64,000 bases of DNA from contig CAZYTA010000011.1 of NCBI GenBank assembly GCA_964650465.1, positions 562-64,561 of the forward strand. The letters are read 5' to 3'. The stretch comes from an uncultured Oscillospiraceae bacterium. Lineage in GTDB: Bacteria; Bacillota; Clostridia; Oscillospirales; SIG627. Below, piece by piece: positions 4,507-50,463 of the stretch. Below the pieces are notes generated by a model. The model did not search any database. It was not told the origin of the DNA and was given only the letters and a program-made list of their open reading frames with translations. Position numbers and translations under genes: made by a program. Position 1 is the stretch's first letter; every line of letters begins with the position of its first letter.

Positions 4507-4558
4507 CTTTTAGCCCTTTATGTGCTATCATACCGATATCAACAATAAGGAGAAAAAC

Positions 4559-6785: not shown

Positions 6786-7358
6786 ATGATAAACACGCAC
6801 ATAGAACATCTTGTAAGACAGATGCCGACCCTTGAAACACATCGTCTTATATTGCGAAAGCTCAAGGTGCAGGATGCACAGGATATGTACGAATATTGTT
6901 CCGACACCGATACGCCGAAGTTCTTGACCTGGGAGCCTCACGAAAGTCTGAAATACACAAAAGAGTATATACGCTTTGTAATAAAAAAGTATAGGACGGG
7001 AGAATATCTTGACTGGGGAATTATCCTAAAATCCAGCGGAAAGCTTATAGGCACATGCGGATTTACTTCAATTGAGCCGGAGAATGCCAAGGGTGAAATA
7101 GGATATGTCTTGAACGGTGCATACCGTAATAACGGCTACGGGAGCGAAGCGGTAAACAGATTGCTTGAATATTCTTTTTACGAGCTTGAGCTTAATAGGA
7201 TAGAGGCAAGAGTGATTGAAAATAACCATCCGTCTGTTGCACTGTTGAAAAAGTGCGGATTTGAATACGAGGGAACATTTCGTCAGGAAATGTATTTGAA
7301 GGGCGAATTCAAAAATATTTTGCATTATGCTCTTTGTAAAGATAGATACGGCTTGTAA
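6786..7358 (+). CDS. GNAT-family N-acetyltransferase (RimJ/RimL-like)
   Basis: THRLILRKLKVQDAQDMYEY...GYVLNGAYRNNGYGSEAVNRLLEYSF...NRIEARVIENNHPSVALLKKCGFEYEG is a typical Acetyltransf_3 pattern. The upstream part of the listed ORF 6540.. overlaps paralogue B and is not credible. Confidence 0.85.
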   Translation: MINTHIEHLVRQMPTLETHRLILRKLKVQDAQDMYEYCSDTDTPKFLTWEPHESLKYTKEYIRFVIKKYRTGEYLDWGIILKSSGKLIGTCGFTSIEPENAKGEIGYVLNGAYRNNGYGSEAVNRLLEYSFYELELNRIEARVIENNHPSVALLKKCGFEYEGTFRQEMYLKGEFKNILHYALCKDRYGL

Positions 7359-9469
7359 TGAAGCGGTTATTTTGCGGCTTTGCAATTGTATTTGTTGTTT
7401 TATCTTTTTTGAATCTTTTATTTGGAAAGACTTTTGGCTTGATTATTCTTTCGGTTCTTGCATTTGCTTTGTTGGTGTTTGGCTTTTTAAGAATCAAGTT
7501 CAAAAACTCTGCTTTTACAAACATTATTGTTGCGACTTTATTTGCCGTATGCGCTGTTGCATCGGTTACTTTCGTTTTTCTTCCAAGGCTTGAAGAAGCA
7601 AGAAGCCTTGATTCTGCTTATGTTACTGCAGAAGGAAAAATTATATCTGAAGCACCTGCAGGAAATTACACAGCATTTACTGTAAAATGCAAAGAAATAG
7701 GCGATGTTAAAAGAACACAGAATGTCACTGTTATGATACTAAAACCAAGTGATGATGCAGAAGTAGGAAAACGCATTTCTTTTTCGGGCAGGCTTGGATT
7801 TGAGGATTCAGTGTATAATAAGGGCAGAGAATCCTTTCTGACTGTTTTTACAGGAGATTATGAAGTTCTTAAGGATACCGATATTCTTGGACAATTTGTT
7901 TACACACTCAGAACAAGGATAAAAGGCATCACCGAGCAAATGAAGCATACAGGTCTTGTAAATGCTTTGATAATCGGAGATAAAAGCGGTCTTGACAGCG
8001 AAACAAGTGAGAGTTTTAGAGCAATAGGAACATCGCATCTTCTTGCAATTTCAGGCTTGCATTTGTCAATGATTGTTATGTCATTTTATTCGTTATCCGT
8101 GCGTGTCGGTATACCGCATGTGTTTTCGTCCGTGCTGTCATCCCTTTTGTCTTTGGTCTATATGCTGATAACCGGTTGTTCTCTTTCTCTTATGAGAGCG
8201 GCTCAAATGATGTTTTTGTTCTTTTTCTCACGTACCGTCAGACGTCGGAAGGACGGAATAACATCACTGGCATTTGCAGGCGTTGTAATTGTGGCTATAA
8301 GCCCGTGGTCGTTGTTCAACGTAGGCTTTTTACTGTCATTTTTTGCTACCTTTGGTATTGTTGTATTTGCTCCGACCATCACAGGAGGTTACAGGAAATA
8401 TCTTCTTGATAAGCAGGAGAAGGGGGCGGTATATTCCCGTACACAGCTTTTGACTCAAAGAATTATTGCTTTGCTGCTGGGCTCTGTTACCACTACACTG
8501 TCGGCAACCGTGATGACTATCCCCGCCGTTTTATATTTCTTCAATGAAATTTCTGTATTCACCGTTGTGGGGAATATTTTTACAATATTCATAGCAAAGT
8601 ATTTTTTGTTAATGGCTTTTGCTTCTGTTGCCCTTCAATGTATGGGGCTTACGTTTTTTGCTTATCCGTTTACTGCGCTGTCAAATCTTTTTGGAAGTAT
8701 ACTGATTTACTTGACCCGGCTGTTAGGCGATATATCTCCTGACTTGATATCTGTAAACACGGCTTTTATATCAGTTGGTATAGTAATTGCAATTTTGCTG
8801 GTTGCCGTGTTTGTTGTATTTTCTAAAAGAATATGGGCTCTTCCTTGCCTGGTAATATCGCTTTCTGTGTTTGTTTTGGCATTCAATGTTATCAGTGCAG
8901 GTATACTGTACCCGTATGCGTTAATTGATTCGATATCAAAAAACGGTGCAAATACTACCTTGGTAAGATGGAGAAATAATACTTATTTACTGGATCAGAC
9001 TGCATCTAATTCACAGAAAATGTATTCTCTCGACGATACTGCGGAATATAACGGAGTAACAGAAATAGACTGTGCTGTGTTTGTAACGCCGTCTGAAATT
9101 CCAAAGGACAGAATAATTGCTTTTTTATCACTTTTTGATATAAGCAAATTGGTTTTGGTGACCGAAGATTTTATTTCGGATGAGATTACGGAAGTAATTA
9201 ACGAATGCAGAAAAAACGAAACGGAAGTACAGCTTGTGAATACGCAAAGCTATGCTGAGATTCCCGGAATAACCGCTTATTGTATTCGGGGACTTTGTAC
9301 TGCATTTGTTGTTGATAATAACGGCAACACCTTTTGCACATATCGCTCGTATACAGAGGATGGCTTTTACCGCGATGCGGTAGATTCGGACATACTTGTA
9401 TTTTACGGAAAAGAATGCATTCTACCAAAAGAACCTGTTCCTGAAGGAAGGTTTGTTTTACATAACTGA
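7358..9469 (+). CDS. comEC: ComEC/Rec2-family DNA internalisation channel protein (C-terminal domain lacks a recognisable metallo-beta-lactamase motif)
   Basis: Competence-domain signature ALIIGDKSGLDSETSESFRAIGTSHLLAISGLHLSMIV and a polytopic membrane core. The start ATG overlaps the GNAT stop (TAATG). Confidence 0.8.
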   Translation: MKRLFCGFAIVFVVLSFLNLLFGKTFGLIILSVLAFALLVFGFLRIKFKNSAFTNIIVATLFAVCAVASVTFVFLPRLEEARSLDSAYVTAEGKIISEAPAGNYTAFTVKCKEIGDVKRTQNVTVMILKPSDDAEVGKRISFSGRLGFEDSVYNKGRESFLTVFTGDYEVLKDTDILGQFVYTLRTRIKGITEQMKHTGLVNALIIGDKSGLDSETSESFRAIGTSHLLAISGLHLSMIVMSFYSLSVRVGIPHVFSSVLSSLLSLVYMLITGCSLSLMRAAQMMFLFFFSRTVRRRKDGITSLAFAGVVIVAISPWSLFNVGFLLSFFATFGIVVFAPTITGGYRKYLLDKQEKGAVYSRTQLLTQRIIALLLGSVTTTLSATVMTIPAVLYFFNEISVFTVVGNIFTIFIAKYFLLMAFASVALQCMGLTFFAYPFTALSNLFGSILIYLTRLLGDISPDLISVNTAFISVGIVIAILLVAVFVVFSKRIWALPCLVISLSVFVLAFNVISAGILYPYALIDSISKNGANTTLVRWRNNTYLLDQTASNSQKMYSLDDTAEYNGVTEIDCAVFVTPSEIPKDRIIAFLSLFDISKLVLVTEDFISDEITEVINECRKNETEVQLVNTQSYAEIPGITAYCIRGLCTAFVVDNNGNTFCTYRSYTEDGFYRDAVDSDILVFYGKECILPKEPVPEGRFVLHN

Positions 9470-9506
9470 AAAACCTCCGGGCATACTATGTTCGGAGGTT
9501 TTTGCC

Positions 9507-10916
9507 ATGAATGTAAATAAAAGTATAAAGGTAAATATTGACAGACTCAGAAGTTCATTTCCCGAAAAGCTAAGTGCGGATTTTGTTCTTGATGAATTTC
9601 TTGTTGCAGGCAGACAGTCATGTCTGTGCTTTTTTAACGGGTCAACAAATTCGGATTTGTTGTTGAAGGTACACAGAAGTATTCTGACATCGGACAGTCT
9701 CCCCGACACAATGGAAGAATTTTCTAAAACAACCGTGCCTCTTACCGATAAAAAGCTTGAATGTAAATTTGATGTAATAATAACTGCATTGCTGTCTTCT
9801 ATGTCTGTTTTGTTTATAGACGGATATGACAGTGCAATAATACTGGACACGAAGGAATATCCTTCACGCTCAATTGAGGAGCCTGAAAAGAATAAAACAA
9901 TGAGAGGTCCCAGAGACGGCTTTTGTGAAAGTATATTTGTAAATACCGCACTTATACGCAGACGTATAAAGACCGACGCTCTTGCTTTTGAGGGGTTTTC
10001 TGTAGGAAGAGAAACCAAAACAAAAGTTGTTCTTGCATATGTAAAGGGGAAATGCAATCAGCGCCTTGTGGATGAAGTCAGACGGCGATTGACTTCTCTT
10101 GATGTTCCGTCATTAACCCTAAGCCAGCAAACCTTATGCGAGTGTATTTTTGACAGACATTTGACAGATAAGCTAAACCCATTTCCCAAAGTCAGGTATG
10201 TAGAGAGACCCGATACTGCCGCATCTATGCTTATAGAAGGGAAGGTGGCACTGCTTTGCGATACAAGCCCCAGCGTTATATTTTTTCCTGTTACTCTTTA
10301 TGATATGGTAGAGGAGACAGACGATTATTATTTTCCGCCTTTAACGGCTACTTATTTGCGAACTCTTCGTGTTGGTATGCTGTTTGTTTCTGTTTTTCTT
10401 TCTCCGCTGTGGCTTCTGGCTTTGGAATATGGTGAAAGCTTGCCTGAATATCTCAAATTTCTCCTTGTTGATTCAAAGGCATATATACCCGTATGGCTGC
10501 AGCTGATTACAGTGGAATTAATGATGGATGCATTGAAAATAGCATCACTTAACACTCCAAATACAATCTCAAACTCTCTCAGCGTAGTAAGCGGATTACT
10601 GCTGAGTGATTTTGCCATAACAGCAGGATGGCTTGTGCCCCAGACTATATTGTACTCGGCAATATCATCAATTGCAAATTTTATTCCGACCAATTATGAG
10701 CTTGGATATGCATTTAAGTTCTGGAGAATGACACTGATTGCTTTCACGGCTTTGTTCAAGCTTTGGGGATTTATTGCGGGAGTTGTGGGCTTTGCGATTA
10801 TAATGATTCTTAACCGCTCAAAGACCAACAGGGAATTCCTTTATCCGCTGTCTCCCGCAGACTTAAAGGGCTTTATTAAGATTTTTATCCGCACGGGTGA
10901 GGGAAAAGAAAAATAG
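9507..10916 (+). CDS. GerA-family spore germination protein A-subunit / SpoVAF-like
   Basis: RGPRDGFCESIFVNTALIRRRIK, PFPKVRYVERPDTAASMLIEGKVALLCDTSPSVIFFP and C-terminal TM helices are typical of GerAA/SpoVAF. ATG at 9507 is preceded by ggaggt. No adjacent GerAB or GerAC genes. Confidence 0.8.
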   Translation: MNVNKSIKVNIDRLRSSFPEKLSADFVLDEFLVAGRQSCLCFFNGSTNSDLLLKVHRSILTSDSLPDTMEEFSKTTVPLTDKKLECKFDVIITALLSSMSVLFIDGYDSAIILDTKEYPSRSIEEPEKNKTMRGPRDGFCESIFVNTALIRRRIKTDALAFEGFSVGRETKTKVVLAYVKGKCNQRLVDEVRRRLTSLDVPSLTLSQQTLCECIFDRHLTDKLNPFPKVRYVERPDTAASMLIEGKVALLCDTSPSVIFFPVTLYDMVEETDDYYFPPLTATYLRTLRVGMLFVSVFLSPLWLLALEYGESLPEYLKFLLVDSKAYIPVWLQLITVELMMDALKIASLNTPNTISNSLSVVSGLLLSDFAITAGWLVPQTILYSAISSIANFIPTNYELGYAFKFWRMTLIAFTALFKLWGFIAGVVGFAIIMILNRSKTNREFLYPLSPADLKGFIKIFIRTGEGKEK

Positions 10917-13410: not shown

Positions 13411-13997
13411 GTATTGTCTTAAAGAATATAACAAAAAAATTTGGCAGAAAAACAGTGATTGAAAATTTTTCTCTTGAGCTTGAAAAAGGCTCAAGAATAG
13501 CTTTGATAGCCGCATCGGGAAGCGGAAAAACCACCTTGTTCAGAATTATAGCAGGGCTTGAAAAAAGGTTTGAAGGTGAGCGCAGGATTGACGGCAAGGT
13601 AGCGCTGATGTTTCAGGAGGACAGGCTTTTTGAACACGCTACAGTTCTTGAAAATGTAATGGCTGTTTCGGACAATAACGCCGACGGTGCTGTGCACCTT
13701 TTGAATAGCCTTGGCTTGTCCGATGCTTTTGAACTATATCCTTCAGCACTTTCGGGAGGTATGAAAAGACGTGTCGCGTTGGCAAGAGCACTGCTTTATG
13801 ACGGGGATACAGTGCTTCTCGATGAGTGCTTTACGGGGCTTGACCCTGAAACCCGACATCAAACTGCGAGTGTTATAAACAAGGAGACCGAGGGAAAAAC
13901 TCTCGTTCTTATTACCCATGATATCGAAGAGGCAAAACTGCTTGGCTGTAAACCGTTGGTGCTTGAAAACGGATTTATATCACAAAATCAGCTGTAA
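13407..13997 (+). CDS. ABC transporter ATP-binding protein (short, 196 aa)
   Basis: Walker A AASGSGKTT, Q-loop MFQED, signature LSGGMKRR, Walker B VLLDE, H-loop ITHD. ATGA overlap with the permease stop. Confidence 0.9.
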   Translation: MSIVLKNITKKFGRKTVIENFSLELEKGSRIALIAASGSGKTTLFRIIAGLEKRFEGERRIDGKVALMFQEDRLFEHATVLENVMAVSDNNADGAVHLLNSLGLSDAFELYPSALSGGMKRRVALARALLYDGDTVLLDECFTGLDPETRHQTASVINKETEGKTLVLITHDIEEAKLLGCKPLVLENGFISQNQL

Positions 13998-14025
13998 AAA
14001 CTAACAGTTTTTACAGCTGATTTTG
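13983..14025 (+). terminator. 20-bp-stem hairpin terminator that includes the ATPase stop codon
   Basis: caaaatcagctgtaaaaact-aac-agtttttacagctgattttg is a perfect inverted repeat, followed by tttgtttg. Confidence 0.8.
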
Positions 14026-14030
14026 TTTGT

Positions 14031-14321
14031 TGTATACGAAACCAACCTCGCCGTTTTGCCTTGTTTGGTTATATTCATAGGTTACGATAGGCGAGAATTG
14101 TCAGCGGCGGCTTGCCTCTCTTTTACTATTTAGGAAATTGCTCCGACCCAAGCCGCATGGCTTTGTTGAAAGAGTACGGCATAATGATAGGCGAGAATTG
14201 TCAGCGGTCACTGACCGCTTTTTTATTACATAGGAAATTGCATCGCAATTGCTTGTAACAAACAAAGTCTACCTCTGAAATTGTGAGCGTTAGCGAACAT
14301 CAGTTGCCGAAGGCGACTTTT
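14031..14321 (+). repeat. Array of about 3 units (100-nt period) of the ATAGG/terminator intergenic repeat, with two variant cores
   Basis: gataggcgagaattgtcagcgg occurs at 14087 and 14187, and taggaaattgc at 14131 and 14231. Unit 1 carries aaccaacctcgccgttttgcc. Units 2 and 3 have different cores. Units end in hairpins agcggtca/tgaccgct+T6 and gttgcc/ggcgac+T6. Confidence 0.75.
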
Positions 14322-15800
14322 TTATAATATTATGCATATAAGACCGTTACTGCCCTCGTTGACAATCTTTTGCAAGGTCAGACCGATTTTTTCTCTTGCA
14401 TCCTGAGGCATGTGGTCAAGCTTTGAATTCAGCCCCTCATTTACAAGACAGTAAAGAGATTTTCCAAACATATTAGATTCCCAAAGCTCCCGAGGATTTT
14501 CTTCAAATTCGTTTAAAAGAAACTTTACCATTTCTTCCGATTGTTTTTCGCTTCCAACTATGGGGTTTATTTCTGTTTTTATCTTTGCTTTTATCATATG
14601 TATGGAATCAGCGCAAGCTTTTAGCTTGACTCCGTATCCGCTTGACTGCTTGATAATTTCAGGTTCTTCAAGAATCAGGTCATCAACCTGCGGAACTACT
14701 ATACCGTAGCCTGTTGTTTCTGCTGCATCCAAAGCTTCACGGATTTTTTCAAAGCGATGTTTTGTTTCTCCCAGTGTGCAAATTGCTTCAAAGAGAGCTT
14801 TTTCATCTGTTATATCAATTCCGCATCTTTCACTTAGTGCCTTGTAAAACAGGCTGTCATCCAGCTTGATTTCTACCTTGCTTTTTCCTGTCCCCAGCTC
14901 GGTGCTTACTATTCCTGCCCATTTTATACCTTCCTTTTTTCCAAGCTCTTCAATGCTTCTGTGAACTGATGCTACAGAGTCTATACTTTCGGCGGTTTCT
15001 CTCATTGCCGTTTCCAATTCTGTACGCAGATAGTTTTTTCTGTCCAGAGAATTTATCCATGACGGTATTGTTACGGCAAGCTCTGTAACAGGGAATTCGT
15101 ATAGACAGAGTTCGATTATGTGACCGATATCTTCTGCTTCCATTTTTGCACAGTTGATAAGAGCAACAGGCACCGAATGCCTTCCTTCCAATTCCAGTGC
15201 TGTCTGTATAGCTGTATCTGAGTCAGGATCGGAAGAGTTGAGAACGATAACAAACGGTTTGCCGCACGCCTTCATATCGGCTATGACTCTGTTTTCACAT
15301 TCCTCGTAGGCATATCTTGGAAGCTCGCCGAAGCTGCCGTCGGTTGTGATTACTATTCCTATGGTGGAATGCTCGTCGATAACCTTTTTCGTTCCCATTT
15401 CAGCTGCAGCTTCAAAAGGGAGAGGTTTTTGTGACCAAGGAGTCATTACCATTCTGTCACTGCCGTTTTCCGTCAACCCTTCAGCACCGCTTACGATATA
15501 ACCTACGCAGTCAATCATTTTTACATTGAGACCCACGTTTCCCTGTAGAGCAATTTTTACTGCTTTCTCCGGAACAAATTTAGGTTCTGTTGTCATTACG
15601 GTTTTTCCGGCAGCACTTTGCGGCATTTCGTCACGTGCTCTGGATTTTTCTGATTCATTTTCAATTTCGGGTAAAACCAGAGTCTCCATAAATTTTTTTA
15701 TAAATGTTGATTTTCCTGACCTTACGGGTCCGACTACTCCGATATATACATCTCCGTTGGTACGTGTTGCAATGTCCGAGTATATTTTTGCATTGTTCAT
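14322..15800 (-). CDS. spoIVA: Stage IV sporulation protein A (spore coat morphogenetic ATPase)
   Basis: MNNAKIYSDIATRTNGDVYIGVVGPVRSGKSTFIKKFME... (Walker A) and collinear over the full length with SpoIVA, 492 aa. ATG at 15800 is preceded by ggaggaag. The listed ORF starts 45 nt upstream. Confidence 0.95.
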   Translation of the reverse strand: MNNAKIYSDIATRTNGDVYIGVVGPVRSGKSTFIKKFMETLVLPEIENESEKSRARDEMPQSAAGKTVMTTEPKFVPEKAVKIALQGNVGLNVKMIDCVGYIVSGAEGLTENGSDRMVMTPWSQKPLPFEAAAEMGTKKVIDEHSTIGIVITTDGSFGELPRYAYEECENRVIADMKACGKPFVIVLNSSDPDSDTAIQTALELEGRHSVPVALINCAKMEAEDIGHIIELCLYEFPVTELAVTIPSWINSLDRKNYLRTELETAMRETAESIDSVASVHRSIEELGKKEGIKWAGIVSTELGTGKSKVEIKLDDSLFYKALSERCGIDITDEKALFEAICTLGETKHRFEKIREALDAAETTGYGIVVPQVDDLILEEPEIIKQSSGYGVKLKACADSIHMIKAKIKTEINPIVGSEKQSEEMVKFLLNEFEENPRELWESNMFGKSLYCLVNEGLNSKLDHMPQDAREKIGLTLQKIVNEGSNGLICIIL

Positions 15801-15828
15801 TTCTCTTCCTCCGCATTGTTTTTGTAAA

Positions 15829-15857
15829 TTAATATGCGGCGGCACAAAAAAATATAC
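15829..15857 (-). promoter_or_regulatory. Candidate SigE-type promoter for spoIVA
   Basis: The minus strand reads GTATATT, 14 nt, CATATTAA. My recollection of the SigE consensus is kmATAtt-14-CATAcanT. spoIVA is SigE-dependent in Bacillus. The match is only partial. Confidence 0.3.
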
Positions 15858-16460: not shown

Positions 16461-17453
16461 ATGAAATCTTCATCTCAGATAAAAGTCTCTGCAATAAGCT
16501 TTATGATTGCACTGCTTGTGTCGCTTGCAGTTTTCGGAATAATAGCTTATTTTGCAATATCGGGATTTATGTCACCCGAGGAAACCAAAACACCCGAACA
16601 GGGCGTCGATGCCCCTGTTGATGACCTTAACAGCGAGCAACCACCCCTTGCACCCGAAGAGGTCGAAAAAATTCATGGTGAAAGCTTTACAGTACTGATA
16701 GCCGGTTATGACCTTCAGGAGCTTGGCTTTGATGCAATGGCTGTTGTTGATGTTGACAAAGAGAACCAAAAGGTTACGGTATCTCCTCTTAATGTGGATA
16801 CTAAGGTCTATGTGGGTCACGGCGACTCATATTCATTGAATATCAGGACAGGCGACCTTATAAAGTATAAGGATATGCAGTATGTTGTGGATAAGATAAA
16901 TGCTACTACAGGTCTCAAAATAGAATATTATGTTACCTTTACGGCAGAGGGATTTATCGAAGCCTTTGACGCATTCAACAAAAACAAGGATTATACATAT
17001 AAGGTTCCCAAGGACATGGAGCATGTTTACGTTGAAATTCCGGAAACAGACCCCGAAAAGGAGCTAACAGCGGAAGAGACCGCCGAATTGGAAGCATTAA
17101 AGGCATACGAAAAGTATAACATATCCTTCAAGAAGGGGGATTCTTTGACCGACGGAATAGATGTTTACAATATGCTCAGGTATAAGGGAGATTCCTCAAC
17201 AGACCGCATGACAAGACAAGCAACCTTTATAAAGGATGTTGTTTCAAAAATAATTCCGGCGCGCTTCAAGGAAGGTAATTTGACTGCTATAGTTGATACA
17301 GCGAAGGCTCTTATCAAGCTTACTTCGTCTATAAGTACAAACATAAGTGCGGAAACATTTATTACAGAGACATTTGACCTTATTTCAGCTATGCCCGGCT
17401 TCTCCTACGGCACAGTCACAAAGTATACCTCGGGAATAGCAAACTTCAAATAA
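16461..17453 (+). CDS. Membrane-anchored LytR/CpsA/Psr (LCP)-like protein, apparently degenerate
   Basis: N-terminal TM helix. FTVLIAGYDLQELGFDAMAVVDVDKENQKVTVSPLNVDTKVY and IEYYVTFTAEGFIEAFDAF parallel LCP motifs (xxLLxGxDxR..RxDsixxxxxxP....xxxSiPRDtyv; idyyvxvnxxgfxxxvDalGG). The conserved Arg/Asp positions are replaced. Confidence 0.45.
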   Translation: MKSSSQIKVSAISFMIALLVSLAVFGIIAYFAISGFMSPEETKTPEQGVDAPVDDLNSEQPPLAPEEVEKIHGESFTVLIAGYDLQELGFDAMAVVDVDKENQKVTVSPLNVDTKVYVGHGDSYSLNIRTGDLIKYKDMQYVVDKINATTGLKIEYYVTFTAEGFIEAFDAFNKNKDYTYKVPKDMEHVYVEIPETDPEKELTAEETAELEALKAYEKYNISFKKGDSLTDGIDVYNMLRYKGDSSTDRMTRQATFIKDVVSKIIPARFKEGNLTAIVDTAKALIKLTSSISTNISAETFITETFDLISAMPGFSYGTVTKYTSGIANFK

Positions 17454-17454
17454 A

Positions 17455-17553
17455 AAATCGTCGAGCCGTATATGGCAAATCTTGCCTACAGTGACTTATG
17501 TATATCAAAACAAAGTACAACGGCGAGGTCGGTTTAGTGAAATTTCTATGATA
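17455..17553 (-). repeat. Degenerate reverse-orientation copy of the ATAGG/terminator repeat
   Basis: The reverse complement reads atcatagaaatttcactaaaccgacctcgccgttgtactttg...cactgtaggcaagatttgcc. Boxes 1, 2 and 4 are recognisable and the terminator arm has decayed. Confidence 0.4.
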
Positions 17554-17571
17554 TAAAAACAGAGGATACAC

Positions 17572-18210
17572 ATGAAAAAAATGAATTTTAAAATCAAAAC
17601 TGCAGTAATAATACTGTCACTTGTTATTGCTGTCATTACTGCTACCGTAGCTTTCGGTGCGGATAATGACCCGTTGGTGACACTTAGCTACATAAATGAA
17701 ACAGTTATTCCCAAGATTACAGAGGATGTAAAAAATGCAGTTCTCGCCATTATTGACCAACGTGAAGACCAGAGCTCTGATACATCCAAAGTACCCGAGG
17801 AGCAGCCTTCCGATACTGTAGACGGCTCCGAGGAGAAACCCGCAGATACCGACCCCAAAGACGGGGAGCAGCCTGCAGAGCCTTCTGTTCCCGTAGTTAC
17901 TCCAAATGATTTGTCAAGCCTTAAGTATAAGGTTGTGTATCTTGTAAAAGGGCAGAAGCTTTATGCTACAGGTGAAAGCAATGAGTCTACAGAGGTAATT
18001 CTCCGTTCCGGCTCGGTTCTTTGTATTTCACCTTTCGGTGATCAGGGAATTGCCGATCTTACAGCATCAAAGGAGCTGTACAATAATGACCCCCTTGTAA
18101 AAAACAATTACTGTTTGATTCCCCGAGGGGGAGACGGAAGAGGCATCTACGCTGTCAGCAGCGATGCATATATTTTGGTGAGAGGAGAATACGAAATTGT
18201 ACAAGAATAA
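17572..18210 (+). CDS. Hypothetical membrane-anchored or secreted protein with an acidic Pro/Glu-rich linker
   Basis: N-terminal TM/signal segment (AVIILSLVIAVITATVAFGA), a PEEQPSDTVDGSEEKPADTDPKDGEQPAEPS linker and a C-terminal ~100-aa domain. RBS agagga. No family recognised. Confidence 0.6.
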   Translation: MKKMNFKIKTAVIILSLVIAVITATVAFGADNDPLVTLSYINETVIPKITEDVKNAVLAIIDQREDQSSDTSKVPEEQPSDTVDGSEEKPADTDPKDGEQPAEPSVPVVTPNDLSSLKYKVVYLVKGQKLYATGESNESTEVILRSGSVLCISPFGDQGIADLTASKELYNNDPLVKNNYCLIPRGGDGRGIYAVSSDAYILVRGEYEIVQE

Positions 18211-20335
18211 GAAGGCTATCAGAGTTATTGCCTTGATACTTGCAGTACTTATGGTCCTTGGACTTTTGGTTGTTGCAATCGAAGCAATAGCGGCAGATAT
18301 ACCTACAGCTATTGAGACAATCGAACAGACTACAGGCGGAGATGAGCTCTCCGCCGTAGCTCTCACTTCTCAGGAAACTTCACCCGAATTGCCATCGGGT
18401 TATTTTTATCTCACAGACCCATCAAAGACATCACGTGACATTTCCGGACTTATTCCTCACCTTGATAAGGTCACACAGCCTATCAGAGTTGGTGTATACT
18501 ATATCTACGGCTCAAACAATTGTCTTGCATTCAGTCATAACATTTCGTCAACCAAGGGCGGACTTGTGATGTATTCAACCTTCGGAGACGAATATACGTT
18601 TTACCGTACCTCCGATACAGGTATCACGGTAATGCGAGACTTTTCCGCAAAGCAAAATTCAAGCGGACTTTATTATCATACAACAACAGGGAATACACAC
18701 ATAATATATCACTGCATAACCGAACACCCTGTTGCATTGGAGGATGTTGACAAAACCATCGATGAATATAAAACCATTCTCGGAAATGATGCGACTGTTT
18801 TTCCCCTTTATATGGACGGTCAGGCATACATAGGTGTTGGAACGTATTCGAATAAGGATGCTTCTGCTGCCGATTGCGAAAATATGAAGTCGAAATTAGG
18901 AGCAAGCTTTGTTCCGAGAACACCCAACAATACTTCTTTGAGTGTTGTTGAAACCTCGACAGGAAAAATTCTTTTTAAGATTGATACCGAAAATCAGGCA
19001 CTTTATGTCAGACCTGTGCAGTCCTATGAAAACGAAAATTACATAAAAAGTGCTGTAGGAAATCTTTTTGACGGAACATTTGAATATAAAACAACAATTA
19101 ATGGTATGTACCTTGTAAATATCCTTGATATTGAGGATTATATAAAGAGCGTTTTGCCTTATGAAATATCCGCATCATGGCCTGATGAATGCCTTAAGGC
19201 TTTCTCGATTGTAGTGCGTTCTTACACTTTGTCTATGCTTGGCAAGTCACACAAGCAACAGGACTTTGATATGTGTGACGAAACACACTGTCAGGCGTAT
19301 CGCGGCAGACTTCGTTCCACAGACAGAACCGATGCTGCCGTTGATGCAACAAAAAATATAGTTCTTGCGTATAACTCAAAGGTTTGTGAGGCTTTTTATC
19401 ATGCCATTTCTGGAGGGGTTACAGAATCGTGTGAATACGTGTGGGGCGGTACAGGATATCCTTATCTCGTCTCACAGCCTGTACCGGACGAAAAGTATTG
19501 GAATTATACCAACGGTGTGTGGAAGTTTGAAGTGTCGGAGCAAGAGCTTTTCAGTTACATACAAAGCAATTCAACAGTGTCTCGTTATGTAAAACACCCT
19601 ATTACATCGATAAGAATATCAAAGTACACCGATGCAGGATATGCTTATGAGATGGAAATAACCGATTCCAGCGGTACTGTTTCTACATTTACGAAATGCG
19701 ATAACATAAGATCAATACTTACAAAATACGCAAAAAGCTCCCGTCTTACCATCGGAAAAAGCAGTACTGTAACAGTAAACGACGGACAAACTGTTACAAT
19801 AGACCCTTACAACATAGTTCAGACAGACAAAGACGGCAAGCCTGTTATCAGTACTACTGCGGCAGGAAGTGATGTAAAAAAACAGGTTATAAGCGGAACA
19901 GGGGAAATAACTACTCTTTCATCCGAGAGCTCATCCAATTATATAATTTCAGGCACAGGCTGGGGACATGGAGTCGGTCTGAGTCAGTACGGTGCAAGAG
20001 ATATGGCAAATAACGGATATCTTTGGCACGAAATAGCATTGTATTTCTTCCCGGGTGCATATCTTGCATTGCTCTCCGATATGTCTACGGATATACTGGC
20101 TGCACCTGATGAGCCCGATATCTCGGAAGAGCCCGATTCACCTACGGAACCGGAGACACCCGAGGTGCCTGAGAACTCGGAAGAAACGGATACCCCCGAG
20201 GAGCCTGCAGAAGGTACTGATAATTCTGATGAAACAACAGAAGAAGATACCGAAAATGACCCTTCTGAAGACGATGACGAGCTTGACGATTATTATGAGA
20301 ATTATAAGCCCGGAACTCCGATAAGAGTGGTATAG
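18197..20335 (+). CDS. SpoIID/LytB-domain protein (712 aa) with N-terminal TM anchor and acidic low-complexity tail
   Basis: SpoIID-domain motifs EDYIKSVLPYEISASWPDECLKAFSIVVRSYT, CDETHCQAYRG, AFYHAISGGVTES and GWGHGVGLSQYGA. TTG start at 18197 after agaggag, overlapping the upstream stop by 14 nt. Confidence 0.85.
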   Translation: MYKNKKAIRVIALILAVLMVLGLLVVAIEAIAADIPTAIETIEQTTGGDELSAVALTSQETSPELPSGYFYLTDPSKTSRDISGLIPHLDKVTQPIRVGVYYIYGSNNCLAFSHNISSTKGGLVMYSTFGDEYTFYRTSDTGITVMRDFSAKQNSSGLYYHTTTGNTHIIYHCITEHPVALEDVDKTIDEYKTILGNDATVFPLYMDGQAYIGVGTYSNKDASAADCENMKSKLGASFVPRTPNNTSLSVVETSTGKILFKIDTENQALYVRPVQSYENENYIKSAVGNLFDGTFEYKTTINGMYLVNILDIEDYIKSVLPYEISASWPDECLKAFSIVVRSYTLSMLGKSHKQQDFDMCDETHCQAYRGRLRSTDRTDAAVDATKNIVLAYNSKVCEAFYHAISGGVTESCEYVWGGTGYPYLVSQPVPDEKYWNYTNGVWKFEVSEQELFSYIQSNSTVSRYVKHPITSIRISKYTDAGYAYEMEITDSSGTVSTFTKCDNIRSILTKYAKSSRLTIGKSSTVTVNDGQTVTIDPYNIVQTDKDGKPVISTTAAGSDVKKQVISGTGEITTLSSESSSNYIISGTGWGHGVGLSQYGARDMANNGYLWHEIALYFFPGAYLALLSDMSTDILAAPDEPDISEEPDSPTEPETPEVPENSEETDTPEEPAEGTDNSDETTEEDTENDPSEDDDELDDYYENYKPGTPIRVV

Positions 20336-20388
20336 TAGAACTTTTGTTGGTTTCAAGGATTATTTTTGCAGATAAATATTCCTGCAAA

Positions 20389-20534
20389 ATAAAAAGCGGC
20401 GAGTCGCCGCTGACAATGCTCGCCTATTGTAGCCTATATATGCATCCAAATAAAGTAAAACGGCGAGGTTGATTCAATGCAATTTCCTTGTAGATAAAAA
20501 AAGCGGCGAGTTGCCGCTTGCAAATCTACCTATC
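20389..20534 (-). repeat. About 1.3 units of the ATAGG/terminator repeat (reverse orientation)
   Basis: The reverse complement reads gataggtagatttgcaagcggcaactcgccgcttttttt / atctacaaggaaattgcattgaatcaacctcgccgttttac...atataggctacaataggcgagcattgtcagcggcgactcgccgctttt. Confidence 0.8.
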
Positions 20535-20605
20535 CGTATTTTGACTGTGTTCAAACAGCGCAAAAGGGTTTTACCGATTTTGCGAAATATTATATGATAC
20601 AATAT

Positions 20606-20644
20606 GGGCTGTTTAAATACTCGAATAGAGTTTTTAAACAGCCC
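20606..20644 (+). terminator. Long hairpin, nearly identical to the one at 50425-50463
   Basis: gggctgtttaaatactc-gaata-gagtttttaaacagccc followed by gtttttt. Lies 10 nt beyond the eda stop. Confidence 0.65.
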
Positions 20645-20653
20645 GTTTTTTGC

Positions 20654-39286: not shown

Positions 39287-39480
39287 ATTTTGACAAGTCC
39301 CCTCATCTTATAGATCCCCCTAAAGAAAGCACCGTACACAAGCTGTCGCTTGGTACGGTGATTTCTTTATTATAGCCGAAGGGAGTCTAACCCTTGTCGG
39401 TTTCAGAGGGGAATTTTCGCCCCTGCCGTCGTTACATTCCCTTGTAAGCTGTAATGGTTATTTTATCAAAAATAAGTGAT

Positions 39481-43949: not shown

Positions 43950-45098
43950 GTGAATCATTTTGACATAAAAACGCACATATATTTTGGTGAGAAATCTCTT
44001 GACCGTATCTCTGAGCTTCCATATAAGAACGCACTTATCATTTCCGACCCTTACGTTGTAAAAAGCGGTATGATACATCTCATAACCTCACGTTTGCAGG
44101 AAGCTAAGATAGAATGGCAGGTTTTTGATGATGTAATTCCTGACCCGCCCATAGAAAAGATTTCTGCAGGCGTTGAAGCTGTTCTTTCTGCTAAGGCAGA
44201 TGTTTTGATTGCGATTGGCGGAGGCTCTGCAATCGATTCCGCAAAAGCGATCCGTGAAGTTGCATCACAGGCTGATACTTCCTATTCCCGTCCTGCTCTT
44301 ATTGCAATTCCCACAACAAGCGGTACCGGCAGTGAAGTTACATCCTTCTCCGTTATCAGTGACACAGCAAATCACAGAAAGATTCCTCTTGCAGATGATT
44401 CTCTGCTTCCCGATGAGGCGATACTTGATGCAGAGCTTGTTAAAAGTGTGCCGCCGGCAATCACAGCGGACACTGGTATGGACGTATTCACACATGCACT
44501 GGAGTCATATGTAAGCACCAATAACAACGAATTTTCCGCAGCGCTTGCAGAAAAGGCAATAGAAATCACGGGCTCGTTTTTGCTTCGTTCGTTCCTTGAC
44601 AATAACGACACGCATGCCCGACAGAAAATGCATATTGCATCGTGTCTGGCAGGTCTTGCTTTCAATACTGCATCTCTCGGTATCAATCACAGTATGGCGC
44701 ATCAGCTCGGAGCGGCATTCCATATTCCCCACGGCAGAGCAAATGCAATGCTTCTTCCGCACATTATTGAATATAACAGTGATATTGACAAGTATTCCCG
44801 ACTTAAGACAGATTACCCCAAGCATGTTAGAAAATATGCTACCGTTGCGAGAACACTGGGACTCCAGAACTTTAACATTGTAACTACTGTAAGAGCACTT
44901 TCAAACTGGTGTCAGTTTATGATGAAAGAGATGGATATGCCCCTCTCAATTTCCGAAACAGGGGTATGTACAGAATCTGAGTATTTTGCTCAAATTCCTG
45001 CTATGGCTGAAGCTGCAATGGCAGACAAATGCACAGCTACAAATCCTAAGGTTCCCACTGTAAAAGACCTTGAAATGATATATGCACAGCTGTGGTGA
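43950..45098 (+). CDS. Iron-containing (group III) alcohol dehydrogenase
   Basis: GGGSAIDSAK, PTTSGTGSEVT and HSMAHQLGAAFHIPHGRANA motifs. GTG start. Confidence 0.9.
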   Translation: MNHFDIKTHIYFGEKSLDRISELPYKNALIISDPYVVKSGMIHLITSRLQEAKIEWQVFDDVIPDPPIEKISAGVEAVLSAKADVLIAIGGGSAIDSAKAIREVASQADTSYSRPALIAIPTTSGTGSEVTSFSVISDTANHRKIPLADDSLLPDEAILDAELVKSVPPAITADTGMDVFTHALESYVSTNNNEFSAALAEKAIEITGSFLLRSFLDNNDTHARQKMHIASCLAGLAFNTASLGINHSMAHQLGAAFHIPHGRANAMLLPHIIEYNSDIDKYSRLKTDYPKHVRKYATVARTLGLQNFNIVTTVRALSNWCQFMMKEMDMPLSISETGVCTESEYFAQIPAMAEAAMADKCTATNPKVPTVKDLEMIYAQLW

Positions 45099-45160
45099 TT
45101 TGTTAATACGTTTTGTTATAAAACTCAAATAATTCAATATTCCAACTCAAAAAATATTTT

Positions 45161-45184
45161 GCCCGACGTTGAAAAACGTCGGGC
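45161..45184 (+). terminator. Hairpin downstream of the alcohol dehydrogenase gene
   Basis: gcccgacgtt-gaaa-aacgtcgggc. There is no clean T-tract. The repeat array begins immediately after it. Confidence 0.5.
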
Positions 45185-45444
45185 TATGTTTATATAGGCG
45201 AGCATTGGCAGCGGAGGCTCTCCGCTTTTTTTATGTTATAGGGAATTGTATTAAATCAACCTCGCCGTTTTACCTTGTCTGGGGATATCTATAGGTTATG
45301 ATAGGCGAGCATTGGCAGCGGAGGCTCTCCGCTTTTTTTATGTTATAGGGAATTGTATTAAATCAACCTCGCCGTTTTACCTTGTCTGGGGATATCTATA
45401 GGTTATGATAGGCGAGCATTGGCGGCGGAGGCTCTCCGCTTTTA
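45185..45444 (+). repeat. Near-perfect tandem array (about 2.4 copies, 107-nt period) of the ATAGG/terminator repeat; type locus
   Basis: ataggcgagcattgg starts at 45194, 45301 and 45408. The two full units are identical by eye. The third terminator differs from them (ggcGgcgg, interrupted T-tract). The last T-tract overlaps the stop codon (45442-45444) of the convergent gene. Confidence 0.9.
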
Positions 45445-47466
45445 TTCTACGAAAAATATCTTATATCCGTATGACTTAATGTCAAAGGTAAAGTCAGCGG
45501 CTTCAAGTGTTTCTGCATTGGTGACAGTTGATACATCTTCATTCAGTTTCATGCTTACGTTTGCTATATCATTTGAGGAAATATTGACAACAAAAGCAAG
45601 AAGCTGAGCCTTACCTGTGATTGAGGTATACTTGTAATAACTTACTTTGACCTTATCGTTTGTTACCTCGGCGTTATTTTTCCAATATGGCAGCCACAGT
45701 GATTTTGTAACGGGGAAACTGTCAATTATTTTCCACACTCCGCTCATTAATTCCAAAGGATATTCTATGTCATTTGGTCTTGGCAGTATGCCGTGGAGAA
45801 TGGAGCATGAAAGAGCTTGCTCAAAGGTCCATAGCGGACGGTTTTCATAGGCTATAAATTCTACCGGTACACCCATGTTTCTGCCGCTGTATTCAGCGCG
45901 GAAATAGTCGATGTTAACATCTGCCGTAGTGCCTTGATTCAATTCAAACTGCAGGTTTTCACCCATCCATGACTGGTCAATGTAAGGAAGAACGGTAAAG
46001 TTGTTGTATCCAAAGCTGTGAACATTAATTTCTCCGCCTCTGGATTTAACAACTCTGTAGAGTCTTTCGAAAAGATTTCTTGTGGCTTTTACAGTATAGC
46101 CTCCGCAAAGGTTTCCGTCATAGTCATACCAACCGCAGCCGTGCAATGTATTTGTACAGCAATTAGGTCTTGAAGTACCGTCAAGATATACGCCGTCAAT
46201 ATTGTATTTGTCCATAAGCGCTTCAATACCGTTGATGAAAAGGTCTGCATATTCGCTGTTATAGCATACCCTGTAGTCTCTCTGGAAGGGGACTCTCCAC
46301 CATCCGCCGAAGTTTCCGAGATTTTCGTGAAGTAATACCTTGTCCTTCAAGTCGCTCCATATGGGTGACATAGTTGAAATTTCGTAACCGAAATACGGTA
46401 AAACCTTAATTCCTCTTTTGTGACATTCATCAACAATAAATGTTAGCTGTTCAGCAGTAAATTCCGAAAGCTCATACCAATTTTGTGACTTGTTCCATTT
46501 TTCATGAAGTATCAGTGTGTCAACACCTTTTTCGACAAGTCTGTCAAATCTGTTTTCAGAGGACATAAAGTCCTTATAATTGCCTTTTATCTTTATTCCG
46601 CAATCAAGATGCAATGCCTTGTGTATGTAAGGGTTATCAGGGAATTTCTTAACGGGAGTTGCCGCAAATCCAAATTGAAAATCAATGGGGTCGTAAAGAG
46701 CATTTCCCTTTGCCATATCTCCGTTCCACGGAATCGGATGTGAGTCGAGAAGGTGTATTCTCAATACAACCTTATCCTCTTCGTGTATTATCTCCATTGC
46801 CTTGTTTTTGTCATTGCACTGCCAGTGACGGTCCGATTCTGCAAACCAGCCAAGTCCCATTTCGTCATTTCCCAGCCACATAAGCGCCTTGAAGGGGAAT
46901 GAAGAATCAAGCTTGGGTATCATCCCGCTTGAGGTAGTTTCAGCTTCTTTTATTACGCTTCCGTCGGACAGAAAAATATCACTGTTTTTGAAAATGTGAT
47001 ACATCCTTGCAATCTCAGGCTTCAATGGGATTTCCAGCCATAGCTTGTCAAGCTTGTAGCGGAATTCCTTGGAGGTAGCAAGACCGAACAACTCCGCTAC
47101 TGTTTTTCCTCTTGTCATCAGCTTAAAATCAATGTCAATGTTTCCGTCATATCTCACGGTATTGCAAAAGTCAATCAGAAATCTGTCCGATTGCATGCAT
47201 CCGCATATAACAGCCTCTTCATCACTACGCCTTTGGATAAAGCTTTCGCTTTCGTTTTCGGGATAGCTGTAATCAAATTTTGCAGGCTGTCCATCCTCTG
47301 TCAGTACAAGTCTCATCGGTTCTGCCAAAAGCTCCTGACCGCAGGAAACGATTGACTTGATCATACCGTCTGCACCGAATGTATAGCTTCGGTTTGCAAC
47401 GGATATCTTGTGACAAAGGTTATCACTTTGAACTCTCACAGGCAAAAACGGATCTGTAATTCTCAT
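45442..47466 (-). CDS. Uncharacterised cytoplasmic protein, probable TIM-barrel glycoside-hydrolase-like (possibly GH123/DUF4091-like; not verified)
   Basis: 674-aa ORF with strong RBS aaaggag and no signal peptide. The central region (GVDTLILHEKWNKSQNWYE...CHKRGIKVLPYFGYE...IDGVYLDGT) looks like a beta/alpha barrel. Confidence 0.5.
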   Translation of the reverse strand: MRITDPFLPVRVQSDNLCHKISVANRSYTFGADGMIKSIVSCGQELLAEPMRLVLTEDGQPAKFDYSYPENESESFIQRRSDEEAVICGCMQSDRFLIDFCNTVRYDGNIDIDFKLMTRGKTVAELFGLATSKEFRYKLDKLWLEIPLKPEIARMYHIFKNSDIFLSDGSVIKEAETTSSGMIPKLDSSFPFKALMWLGNDEMGLGWFAESDRHWQCNDKNKAMEIIHEEDKVVLRIHLLDSHPIPWNGDMAKGNALYDPIDFQFGFAATPVKKFPDNPYIHKALHLDCGIKIKGNYKDFMSSENRFDRLVEKGVDTLILHEKWNKSQNWYELSEFTAEQLTFIVDECHKRGIKVLPYFGYEISTMSPIWSDLKDKVLLHENLGNFGGWWRVPFQRDYRVCYNSEYADLFINGIEALMDKYNIDGVYLDGTSRPNCCTNTLHGCGWYDYDGNLCGGYTVKATRNLFERLYRVVKSRGGEINVHSFGYNNFTVLPYIDQSWMGENLQFELNQGTTADVNIDYFRAEYSGRNMGVPVEFIAYENRPLWTFEQALSCSILHGILPRPNDIEYPLELMSGVWKIIDSFPVTKSLWLPYWKNNAEVTNDKVKVSYYKYTSITGKAQLLAFVVNISSNDIANVSMKLNEDVSTVTNAETLEAADFTFDIKSYGYKIFFVE

Positions 47467-50424: not shown

Positions 50425-50463
50425 GGGCTGTTTAAAAACTCCACAAGAGTTTTTAAACAGCCC
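50425..50463 (+). terminator. Long hairpin, nearly identical to the one at 20606-20644
   Basis: gggctgtttaaaaactc-cacaa-gagtttttaaacagccc followed by attttgc. Confidence 0.7.

Follow-up and report, generated by a model that had tools for sequence, protein, structure and literature searches.

The 64,000-nt stretch of DNA analysed here (contig CAZYTA010000011.1 of an uncultured Oscillospiraceae bacterium, in the following called the window) contains at 45185-45447 a tandem array of an intergenic repeat, and this repeat belongs to a previously undescribed family that is abundant in a clade of uncultured gut Clostridia. The family is dispersed over several genomes, has its own terminator-like 3' end and is situated behind host terminators, where a T-run has been duplicated. 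It is polymorphic between related species and has been recently amplified in at least one genome. The elements are placed at T5-7(A/G)(T/A) runs, which by far most often belong to an ordinary intrinsic terminator oriented in the same way as the element. The evidence favours a mobile DNA repeat over an RNA module of 3' untranslated regions (3'-UTRs), and we consider it reasonably likely that the family is a non-autonomous selfish DNA repeat of ~100 bp which together with the duplicated T-run gives units of 105–113 bp, and, jointly with this, that the array at 45185-45447 is a terminator-adjoining insertion site where, besides, one unit has recently undergone local duplication.

When the window was analysed with Tandem Repeats Finder a sole long-period array was identified, at 45190-45443, with a period of 107, 2.4 copies, 98% matches, 0 indels and a score of 494, in agreement with the near-perfect 2.4-copy array of 107 nt given in a preliminary description of this DNA. 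Box 4 (ATAGGCGAG) starts at 45194, 45301 and 45408 as described there, and the three proposed terminator hairpins are present at 45210-45226, 45317-45333 and 45424-45440, each followed by a T-run. In a consensus scan the 3' end of the unit, AGCGGAGGCTCTCCGCT together with its T-run, was scored as terminator-like, and five terminator-like sites were found in the array stretch compared to 0.2 in shuffled sequences. The order at the locus is the stop codon of an Fe-alcohol-dehydrogenase gene (43950-45098, Pfam Fe-ADH) located upstream of the array, its host terminator, one shortened unit, two full units and the stop codon of a convergent gene. The host terminator hairpin (45161-45184, plus strand, 10-bp stem GCCCGACG..CGTCGGGC) scores as terminator-like on both strands and the array starts immediately 3' of it.

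The shortened first unit (45185-45227, plus strand) consists of the junction string TATGTTTATATAGG joined to CGAG of box 4, the hairpin at 45210-45226 and a T-run, and gave a covariance-model match at 45162-45227 of 25 bits covering model positions 34–107. The reading that fits it best is a unit that has lost the stretch between the ATAGG motifs of boxes 1 and 4, and similar derivatives are found at three other loci (L045, L090 and L018). The first full unit (45228-45334, plus strand, 118.8 bits, covariance-model match 45228-45340) contains, all on the plus strand, the T-run plus AT at 45226-45234, box 1 (TATAGGGAATTGT) at 45237-45249, the helix arm CTCGCC at 45261-45266, a variable middle hairpin region at 45270-45298, ATAGGCGAG at 45301-45309 with the arm GGCGAG at 45304-45309, and the terminator hairpin at 45317-45333. 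The second full unit (45335-45447, plus strand, covariance-model match 45341-45447), with its terminator hairpin at 45424-45440, is 99% identical to the first. The T-run of this second unit is degenerate and shares bases with the stop codon of the convergent gene, which encodes a glycoside hydrolase (45442-47466, minus strand). The region 45185-45444 had been called a type locus, for which nothing singles it out, and the amplification had been called very recent; the latter holds for this array only, where the 99% identity indicates a local duplication, while the other copies in the window are old (mean identity 67%).

That the array is an artefact of the assembly, i.e. an expansion or a collapse of a repeat, is highly improbable. 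Two Logan short-read contigs of SRR14307658 (L098 and L099) encode both flanking proteins exactly and each ends inside the array, and they reproduce both unique-to-repeat junctions exactly, including the G variant of the last unit. Since these contigs are independent of the assembly, the array must be real, and 54 further arrays, drawn from many assemblies, likewise consist of head-to-tail pairs or triples of this period. What could still be said for an artefact is that the short-read assembly breaks at both edges of the array and that the internal number of units comes from one assembly and is thereby less certain than the array itself and its junctions. The repeat thus fragments short-read assemblies of the source organism.

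To find further copies a species-representative genome collection was scanned with the pattern AACCTCGCCGTT-N24-42-ATAGGCGAG, revealing at least 97 stretches; all copy and array statistics given below rest on 97 blocks of 8 kb among the matches listed, together with the window. The blocks and the window hold at least 210 copies (nhmmer), 155 of them full, 43 without the 5' part and 10 without the 3' part, and among the matches listed there are 148 arrays (94 single, 46 double and 8 triple), the multi-unit ones always head-to-tail with a period of ~105–113. The hosts are at least 12 metagenome-assembled genomes (MAGs) from the guts of ruminants and humans that carry the labels Clostridia, Eubacteriales, Oscillospiraceae or Lachnospiraceae, while one extra match in a Muribaculaceae MAG is probably due to chance. 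The window's own genome is absent from the MAGs of the scan, all related genomes being MAGs, and the window is syntenic with JAZSDT (locus L047, ~83% identity) and JAZNRH (locus L029, ~78%). No copies were found in collections of viral contigs, phage records and plasmid records, so nothing points to carriage by a phage or plasmid. A metagenome scan with the 5' half gave 39 stretches; ~17 of them contain real copies, for the most part from one whole-genome shotgun project, and no version bearing cargo was seen. The preliminary description recognised no named Rfam family and this agrees with our searches: Rfam 15 at gathering threshold gave no match in the whole window, and a permissive search of 45100-45500 gave chance-level matches only, the best being dinG (22 bits against a threshold of 46.9) on the host terminator. 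Full-text literature searches with the box sequences returned only chance matches to primers.

The anatomy of the unit was derived from an alignment of 67 copies that are <90% identical to one another, showing nearly invariant blocks between variable stretches. The unit begins with the T-run TTTTT(A/G)T and 3–4 variable bases, followed by box 1 (TAGGAAATTGC) with a short A-rich linker, the conserved AACCTCGCCGTTT, a middle part of ~27 nt that varies in sequence but as a rule folds into a hairpin, the conserved GATAGGCGAG with a variable linker and finally a hairpin whose GCGG..CCGC base is conserved and whose top varies, followed by the next T-run. The GC content of the copies is 0.35–0.6, about 40%. 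Box 3 (ATATAGGyTA) of the preliminary description is in this alignment peculiar to the subfamily of the window and is not kept in the family as a whole, and of the three ATAGG per unit noted there the third is likewise confined to this subfamily. Judged by its sequence the 3' module has the make-up of an intrinsic terminator (GC-rich stem of 5–10 bp, short loop and T-run), with a stem of 6–7 bp and a T-run of 5–7 nt. Shortened copies frequently have the appearance of units that lost the part from one ATAGG motif (box 1) to the other (box 4), and fragments with only the 5' part exist as well.

Box 1 and the terminator also frame other bodies, named family B (14227-14325 in the window and L028) and family C (L021, L036, L038, L060 and L073). 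These share the 5' box TAGGAAATTGC and the 3' terminator with the main family and occur within the same arrays; in L028 family B is present as two minus-strand units, whose box 1 lies at 2600 and 2808 when the locus is read in reverse complement. In some arrays the last feature is a lone box 1 (..TTTTTTAT-cATAGGAAATTGC), beyond which the DNA is unrelated, as in L035 (minus strand, 1512) and L081 (minus strand, 3344; both in reverse-complemented coordinates), in L046 at 5791 and in L026 at ~3910. Such a terminal box 1 is either the 5' stub of a further unit, or the true boundary of the unit lies after box 1.

The position of the elements is closely connected to terminators. The 45 nt upstream of array starts fold with an energy of -10 kcal/mol or below in 74% of the cases (n=109; mean -15.0), compared to 24% of random positions and 19% of 1607 other TTTTTRW sites in the same DNA, and in the element cases listed the upstream stem typically ends exactly at the start of the T-run. 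The host terminators in question belong to genes for ABC transporters, sugar enzymes, sporulation proteins and others. The upstream hairpin is present in 85–87% of co-oriented contexts, 62% of antisense contexts and one out of seven divergent contexts. Most copies were previously said to share the orientation of the upstream gene, and indeed 73% of the arrays follow a co-oriented open reading frame (ORF). Arrays are located between convergent ORFs in 45 out of 92 cases (49%), compared to 22% of all adjacent ORF pairs, and where a terminator works in both directions copies are found back to back on either side of it.

Evidence of movement was obtained from a comparison of the window with L047, where the sequence CCTCTG-TTTTTAC-TTGAA corresponds to CCTCTG-TTTTTAT-(~100 bp element)-TTTTTAT-TTGAAG in the window. 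This empty site lies between the L047 orthologues of the genes at 16461-17453 and 17572-18210, i.e. at the place of the window copy 17450-17559. In 55 of 68 arrays the base following the T-run is the same at the 5' end as at the 3' end, while 44.5 ± 2.9 were obtained when the 3' ends were permuted within genomes (p about 0.0002); the pairs include nine G/G against seven mixed A/G, and rare variants of the T-run (TTTTTG, TTTCTT and TTTTCTA) recur on both sides of arrays. From the one empty/filled pair and the permutation test, the duplicated target site consists of a T5-7 run and at least one further nucleotide. In the 8 kb shared with L047 all three element sites differ in content, showing turnover.

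The identity between copies within a genome is 95% in JAZNRH, 81% in JAFTIJ, 77% in JAZSDT and 67% in the window's genome, compared to 61–74% between genomes, and the copies in JAZNRH, set against 62–71% between genomes, are a recent burst. Adjacent units have a mean identity of 84% and random pairs from the same genome 79%, and only 8 of 39 adjacent pairs reach 95% or more. Most arrays therefore appear to be built by separate insertions beside an existing copy, with the element's own terminator acting as a landing pad, and the 99% pair of the window is one of few recent local duplications among the arrays. Terminator-adjacent insertion, duplication of the T-run, the empty site, the burst and the spread over many genomes together support the suggestion, made in the preliminary description, of an element similar to repetitive extragenic palindromes (REPs) or MITEs (miniature inverted-repeat transposable elements) that spreads with its own terminator.

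A search for what might move the element was performed in the window and the loci found in the scan. In line with the preliminary description the unit has no ORF and no terminal inverted repeats: its ends, defined from the empty site and the T-run duplication as ATCATAGG... and ...GCCGC, are not mutually inverted in any subfamily. A transposase, expected from the same source to be lacking nearby, is absent among the 50 window proteins scanned, as are integrases and reverse transcriptases, and no recurrent mobility gene was found among 836 ORFs near elements in the matches listed. The ORF families that do recur there (at least 150 aa, clustered) are ABC transporters, AraC regulators, leucine-rich-repeat (LRR) proteins, EF-Tu and MatE. 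No autonomous insertion sequence (IS) with the same ends was found in the 755 kb of window and loci, where 5'-only and 3'-only fragments were never paired around an ORF, and neither a Y1-transposase-like gene nor a GTAG/CGTC tag was found within the window.

The mechanism we propose is that an enzyme encoded elsewhere in the genome moves the element in trans and would recognise the invariant boxes TAGGAAATTGC, AACCTCGCCGTTT and GATAGGCGAG and the GCGG..CCGC base of the hairpin. Insertion would take place in the T-run of a terminator, whereby the run is duplicated, the host terminator is left intact with at least five T and a second terminator is added behind it; insertions could for this reason be nearly harmless, and the added terminator may reinforce termination or serve as a back-up. 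Each copy would recreate the preferred target, its own terminator included, so that new copies would land beside old ones and give head-to-tail arrays of fixed period. Candidate chemistries are a DNA route with staggered cuts, site-specific recombination at the T-run as proposed for bcr1, a single-strand route of HUH type and a route via RNA. Gene-less repeats without inverted ends have long been known, such as SPRITE and bcr1, and the present family, which is dense and spread over many species of gut Clostridia, could be a good entry point to how such repeats move, as its insertion logic (behind terminator hairpins, with the T-run doubled, and beside itself) is unusually clear; uncultured hosts and the lack of an enzyme to work with set limits to this use. 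If the proposal is true, the family provides good material for identifying the enzyme, by setting genomes that have young copies against those that lack them, and terminators would be a safe harbour which a parasite both uses and multiplies. In practical terms assemblies would be broken and terminators stacked at hundreds of gene ends, affecting read-through and antisense transcription between convergent genes.

Several observations weigh against a mobile element of this kind. Since the searches revealed neither an enzyme nor an autonomous partner, and the ends are not inverted repeats, the case for mobility is a comparative one, and it includes just one clean empty site; in three further syntenic pairs (L088/L005, L080/L057 and L044/L057) the intergenic DNA is too diverged to align, and the pair L069/L032 is only suggestive. 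The matching T-runs could be fixed parts of subfamily-specific ends, and the enrichment behind terminators could in part reflect selection against insertions elsewhere rather than targeting. The hairpin is seen in just one of the seven divergent contexts and is lacking at the window copy 17450-17559. Copies in orthologous places (window and L029; L026 and L063) resemble the copies of their own genome, which could be due to gene conversion and not to re-insertion. As the relatives are MAGs, copy numbers per genome and the lengths of arrays are uncertain.

A different explanation is that the family is a functional RNA, where each unit is transcribed with box 1 near the 5' end and its own terminator at the 3' end and binds a protein or base-pairs, the copies being gene duplicates. 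We regard this as unlikely, even though structure is conserved in several parts of the unit. Among 146 distinct copies, the complementary hairpin arms noted previously were confirmed for the terminator, where all six pairs change on both sides and 97.4% of the cells are paired, the one-sided changes being biased to the sense strand (23 G.U against 6 C.A). The suggested pairing of CTCGCC with GGCGAG was found in 97.9% of the cells, although it hardly varies, and the five sequences of family C keep this inner helix with other letters (CCGCCGT/ACGGCGG). The middle hairpin is formed from different sequences in different subfamilies (CCGYGC/GCRCGG, TTGT/ACAA, ACCTT/AAGGT and GCTTT/AAAGC), and box 1 is common to at least three different bodies in the manner of a shared 5' module. 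On the other hand, the one-sided changes in the helix between box 2 and box 4 are strand-neutral (12 G.U against 11 C.A), the fold of the body does not exceed dinucleotide shuffles in stability (mean z -0.8 for the sense and -0.6 for the antisense strand), and a long-range helix pairing box 1 with the linker that precedes the terminator was rejected, with just 60% of the cells paired and no convincing covariation. No conserved promoter with -35 and -10 boxes was found upstream, the bases between the T-run and box 1 being variable, and the sole internal promoter-like sequence (TTGTCT-16-TATGAT) is limited to units of the window's subfamily, with no match at 30880-31260. Furthermore, 74% of the arrays are behind a strong host terminator, the copies are very many and free to decay (mean identity 67% in the window), sister species differ in them and Rfam holds no match. 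The missing promoter, the host terminator in front, the body that folds no better than shuffles and the strand-neutral helix leave the 3'-UTR RNA module or small RNA of the preliminary description weakly supported. Other candidates for expression signals were also rejected: hexamers for a -10 box in the region of the T-run and box 1 do not, in many subfamilies, keep a T as their sixth base; box 1 is similar to a sigma-H -35 element (AGGAAAT), but the GAAT-like motif follows after 6 nt, the usual sigma-H spacing being about 14 nt; the spacing is unfit for sigma-54; and for a small ORF from ATG/ATC in box 2 both frame and start codon vary between subfamilies.

Retroposition similar to that of short interspersed elements (SINEs) would let an RNA ending at the terminator be reverse-transcribed into T-runs, with the A-run of a nicked bottom strand pairing to the 3' U-run of the RNA and a staggered second nick duplicating the T-run; taken as a whole we find this scheme quite improbable. 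The lack of terminal inverted repeats in spite of a duplicated T-rich target is consistent with it, as is the 3' boundary (stem and ~7–8 nt, TTTTTTAT), which coincides with the expected release point of the RNA in intrinsic termination, and the 3–4 nt between T-run and box 1 are unusually variable. Group IIC introns, retroelements that home behind terminators, offer a precedent (PMC1702495). Copies deficient in the 5' part outnumber those deficient in the 3' part, 43 to 10, but as a sign of retroposition this is weakened, since many of the shortened copies are ATAGG-ATAGG deletions and 5'-only fragments occur, and model-edge effects contribute as well. A promoter from which the RNA could be made is also missing, neither the window nor the surroundings of elements showed a reverse transcriptase, the Rfam searches gave no ribozyme or intron signature, and we know of no bacterial SINE-like system of this kind. 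In a wider form, which we think equally doubtful, a terminator-homing element would move through a single-stranded or RNA copy that ends at its own terminator and, by pairing of its 3' U/T-run with the A-run opposite the T-run of another terminator, primes copying there. Such a route would account for ends that are not inverted, a doubled T-run, a 3' boundary at the expected release point, a 5' junction that varies and the self-nesting arrays, and would, if true, amount to a bacterial SINE with terminators as both cargo and landing pads. There is little probability, too, that the family is a terminator cassette selected by the host, in which doubled or tripled terminators shield convergent genes from read-through and spread by recombination or gene conversion. 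The 49% of arrays between convergent genes, the likeness of copies at the same place in different species to those of their own genome and the maintained hairpin all fit with such a cassette, yet recombination leaves insertion at unrelated terminators with T-run duplication unexplained, as well as the ~70 nt of non-terminator sequence with invariant boxes that travels along, and decayed and truncated copies are common.

When the selfish repeat proposed here is compared to known elements, the nearest ones appear to be functional analogues by description, with SPRITE and bcr1 as the closest. SPRITE is found only in pneumococcus and S. mitis, in ~30 copies with 28% GC, an 18-bp duplex and a long U-rich tail, and neither target duplication nor an empty site could be demonstrated for it (PMC3049150). 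Like the family it is ~105 bp, gene-less, folds like a terminator and is enriched at convergent gene ends; both are without real terminal inverted repeats or a known mobilising IS, and for both a parasitic nature, with possible co-option as terminators, is assumed. The family differs by its ~40% GC, a GC hairpin of 6–7 bp and a 70-nt body with invariant boxes, as well as by the T-run duplication, the placement behind pre-existing terminators, the head-to-tail arrays and a far higher density. Compared by description, the family thus lacks the 18-bp duplex with a long U-rich tract, and the AT-richness, that characterise SPRITE. The repeat bcr1 (group A bcr) of the B. cereus group (Okstad 2004; Kristoffersen 2011) is, as summarised elsewhere, ~155 bp with a 5-bp direct repeat, TTTAT, and a cruciform-like two-stem fold, is reported to be transcribed and has been proposed to move by a process resembling site-specific recombination and tied to TTTAT (PMC3184786, PMC6542083). 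Judged from these summaries, it shares with the family that it is a Firmicute intergenic repeat of ~100–155 bp with a T-rich direct repeat (that of the family ends in TAT), patchy between related strains and with stem-loops kept by compensatory changes, while size, fold and taxon set the two apart by description. The summarising sources do not describe bcr1 as carrying a terminator or being situated behind one.

Group IIC introns, e.g. B.h.I1, lie just downstream of terminator motifs consisting of an inverted repeat and T's (PMC1702495). They have this location in common with the family but are ribozymes of several hundred nt, usually with an ORF for reverse transcriptase, and give no target duplication, while the family contains no ORF and gave no Rfam match to group II ribozyme domains (5' GUGYG, domain V). 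With MITEs, REPs and bacterial interspersed mosaic elements (BIMEs) the family shares that it is small, non-coding, intergenic, multi-copy and capable of secondary structure. Some elements of these kinds, e.g. the Correia element, have an effect on transcription. The ends of MITEs are inverted repeats that match those of a parent IS; in the family a target-site duplication is found and such repeats are not. REPs are imperfect palindromes of 20–40 nt that carry a conserved GTAG or CGTC tag and go together with a RAYT gene flanked by REPs (PMC3733652), whereas the family unit is ~105 nt with three separate conserved boxes, is no simple palindrome and was seen to carry neither tag. The well-defined target and the self-nesting of the family seem to be undocumented in the accounts of these analogues that were consulted.

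In the whole window there are eight full and three degenerate or partial copies, i.e. 11 units in 64 kb. The full copies were identified with the covariance model, filters off, with E-values from 1e-13 to 1e-22, and also by a hidden Markov model (HMM) search; weaker units were found by the covariance model with filters off at 14127-14226, 20501-20605 and 45162-45227. The copies expected from the preliminary description near 20389-20534, 27473-27575, 30942-31044 and 31093-31193 were all recovered by the covariance model. The copies proposed at 14031-14321 turned out to be one family copy, at 14024-14126 (plus strand, 84.3 bits), lacking box 1 through a small deletion and located directly 3' of a palindromic host terminator at 13992-14016, followed by a hybrid unit at 14127-14226 (plus strand, 45.9 bits; box 1, an unrelated middle, box 4 and terminator) and the family B unit at 14227-14325 (plus strand), which has the same box 1 and terminator around a different body and is also found twice in L028. 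The copy described as decayed at 17455-17553 is present and is a diverged full copy at 17450-17559 (minus strand, 81.4 bits) with TTTTTAT on both flanks. For the copies suggested at 2845-2925 and, as a possibility, at 39395-39450 no match was obtained even at E<=10, the former containing merely box 1-like and box 4-like strings by eye.

The full copy at 20388-20500 (minus strand, 118.7 bits) forms a head-to-tail pair with a degenerate unit at 20501-20605 (minus strand, 38.1 bits), the upstream member, situated behind the palindromic host terminator at 20609-20645. Another full copy, at 27464-27575 (plus strand, 76.1 bits), is located directly after the terminator of a zinc-finger gene (27049-27408), and L029 (JAZNRH) has a copy at the orthologous place. 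A possible decayed second unit 3' of it, at 27576-27669, is not significant with the covariance model (12 bits, E=2.2); element-like remnants also follow the orthologous copy in L029. Two full copies, at 30939-31051 (minus strand, 102.2 bits) and 31083-31195 (plus strand, 100.9 bits), form a back-to-back pair on the left and right sides of one two-way terminator (~31050-31085) between convergent genes, and the consensus scan showed further terminator-like sites at 30962-30946 and 31172-31188.

A second repeat family consists of long palindromic terminator hairpins, GGGCTGT(A/T)nAAAAACTC-loop-GAGTTTTT(A/T)nACAGCCC, located in the window at 2794-2826, 13992-14016, 20609-20645 and 50428-50460 and also in L001, L047, L061, L078 and L083. 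A regular expression for this hairpin gave three matches in the window, compared to 0.0 in shuffles, and the motif supplies many of the host terminators in front of the main element. In the first part of the window the genes 648-2783 and 4520-6694 (~2.1 kb; 711 and 724 aa) are paralogous, with 68–88% DNA identity and an offset of 3911 bp, and no Pfam domain was found in either of the two proteins. The host is a spore-former, with genes for SpoIVA (14322-15845), a SpoIID-domain protein (18197-20335) and a GerA germination protein (9396-10916), and a ComEC-type competence protein is encoded at 7358-9469. The remaining part of the window consists of ordinary chromosomal housekeeping genes and genes for sugar metabolism.

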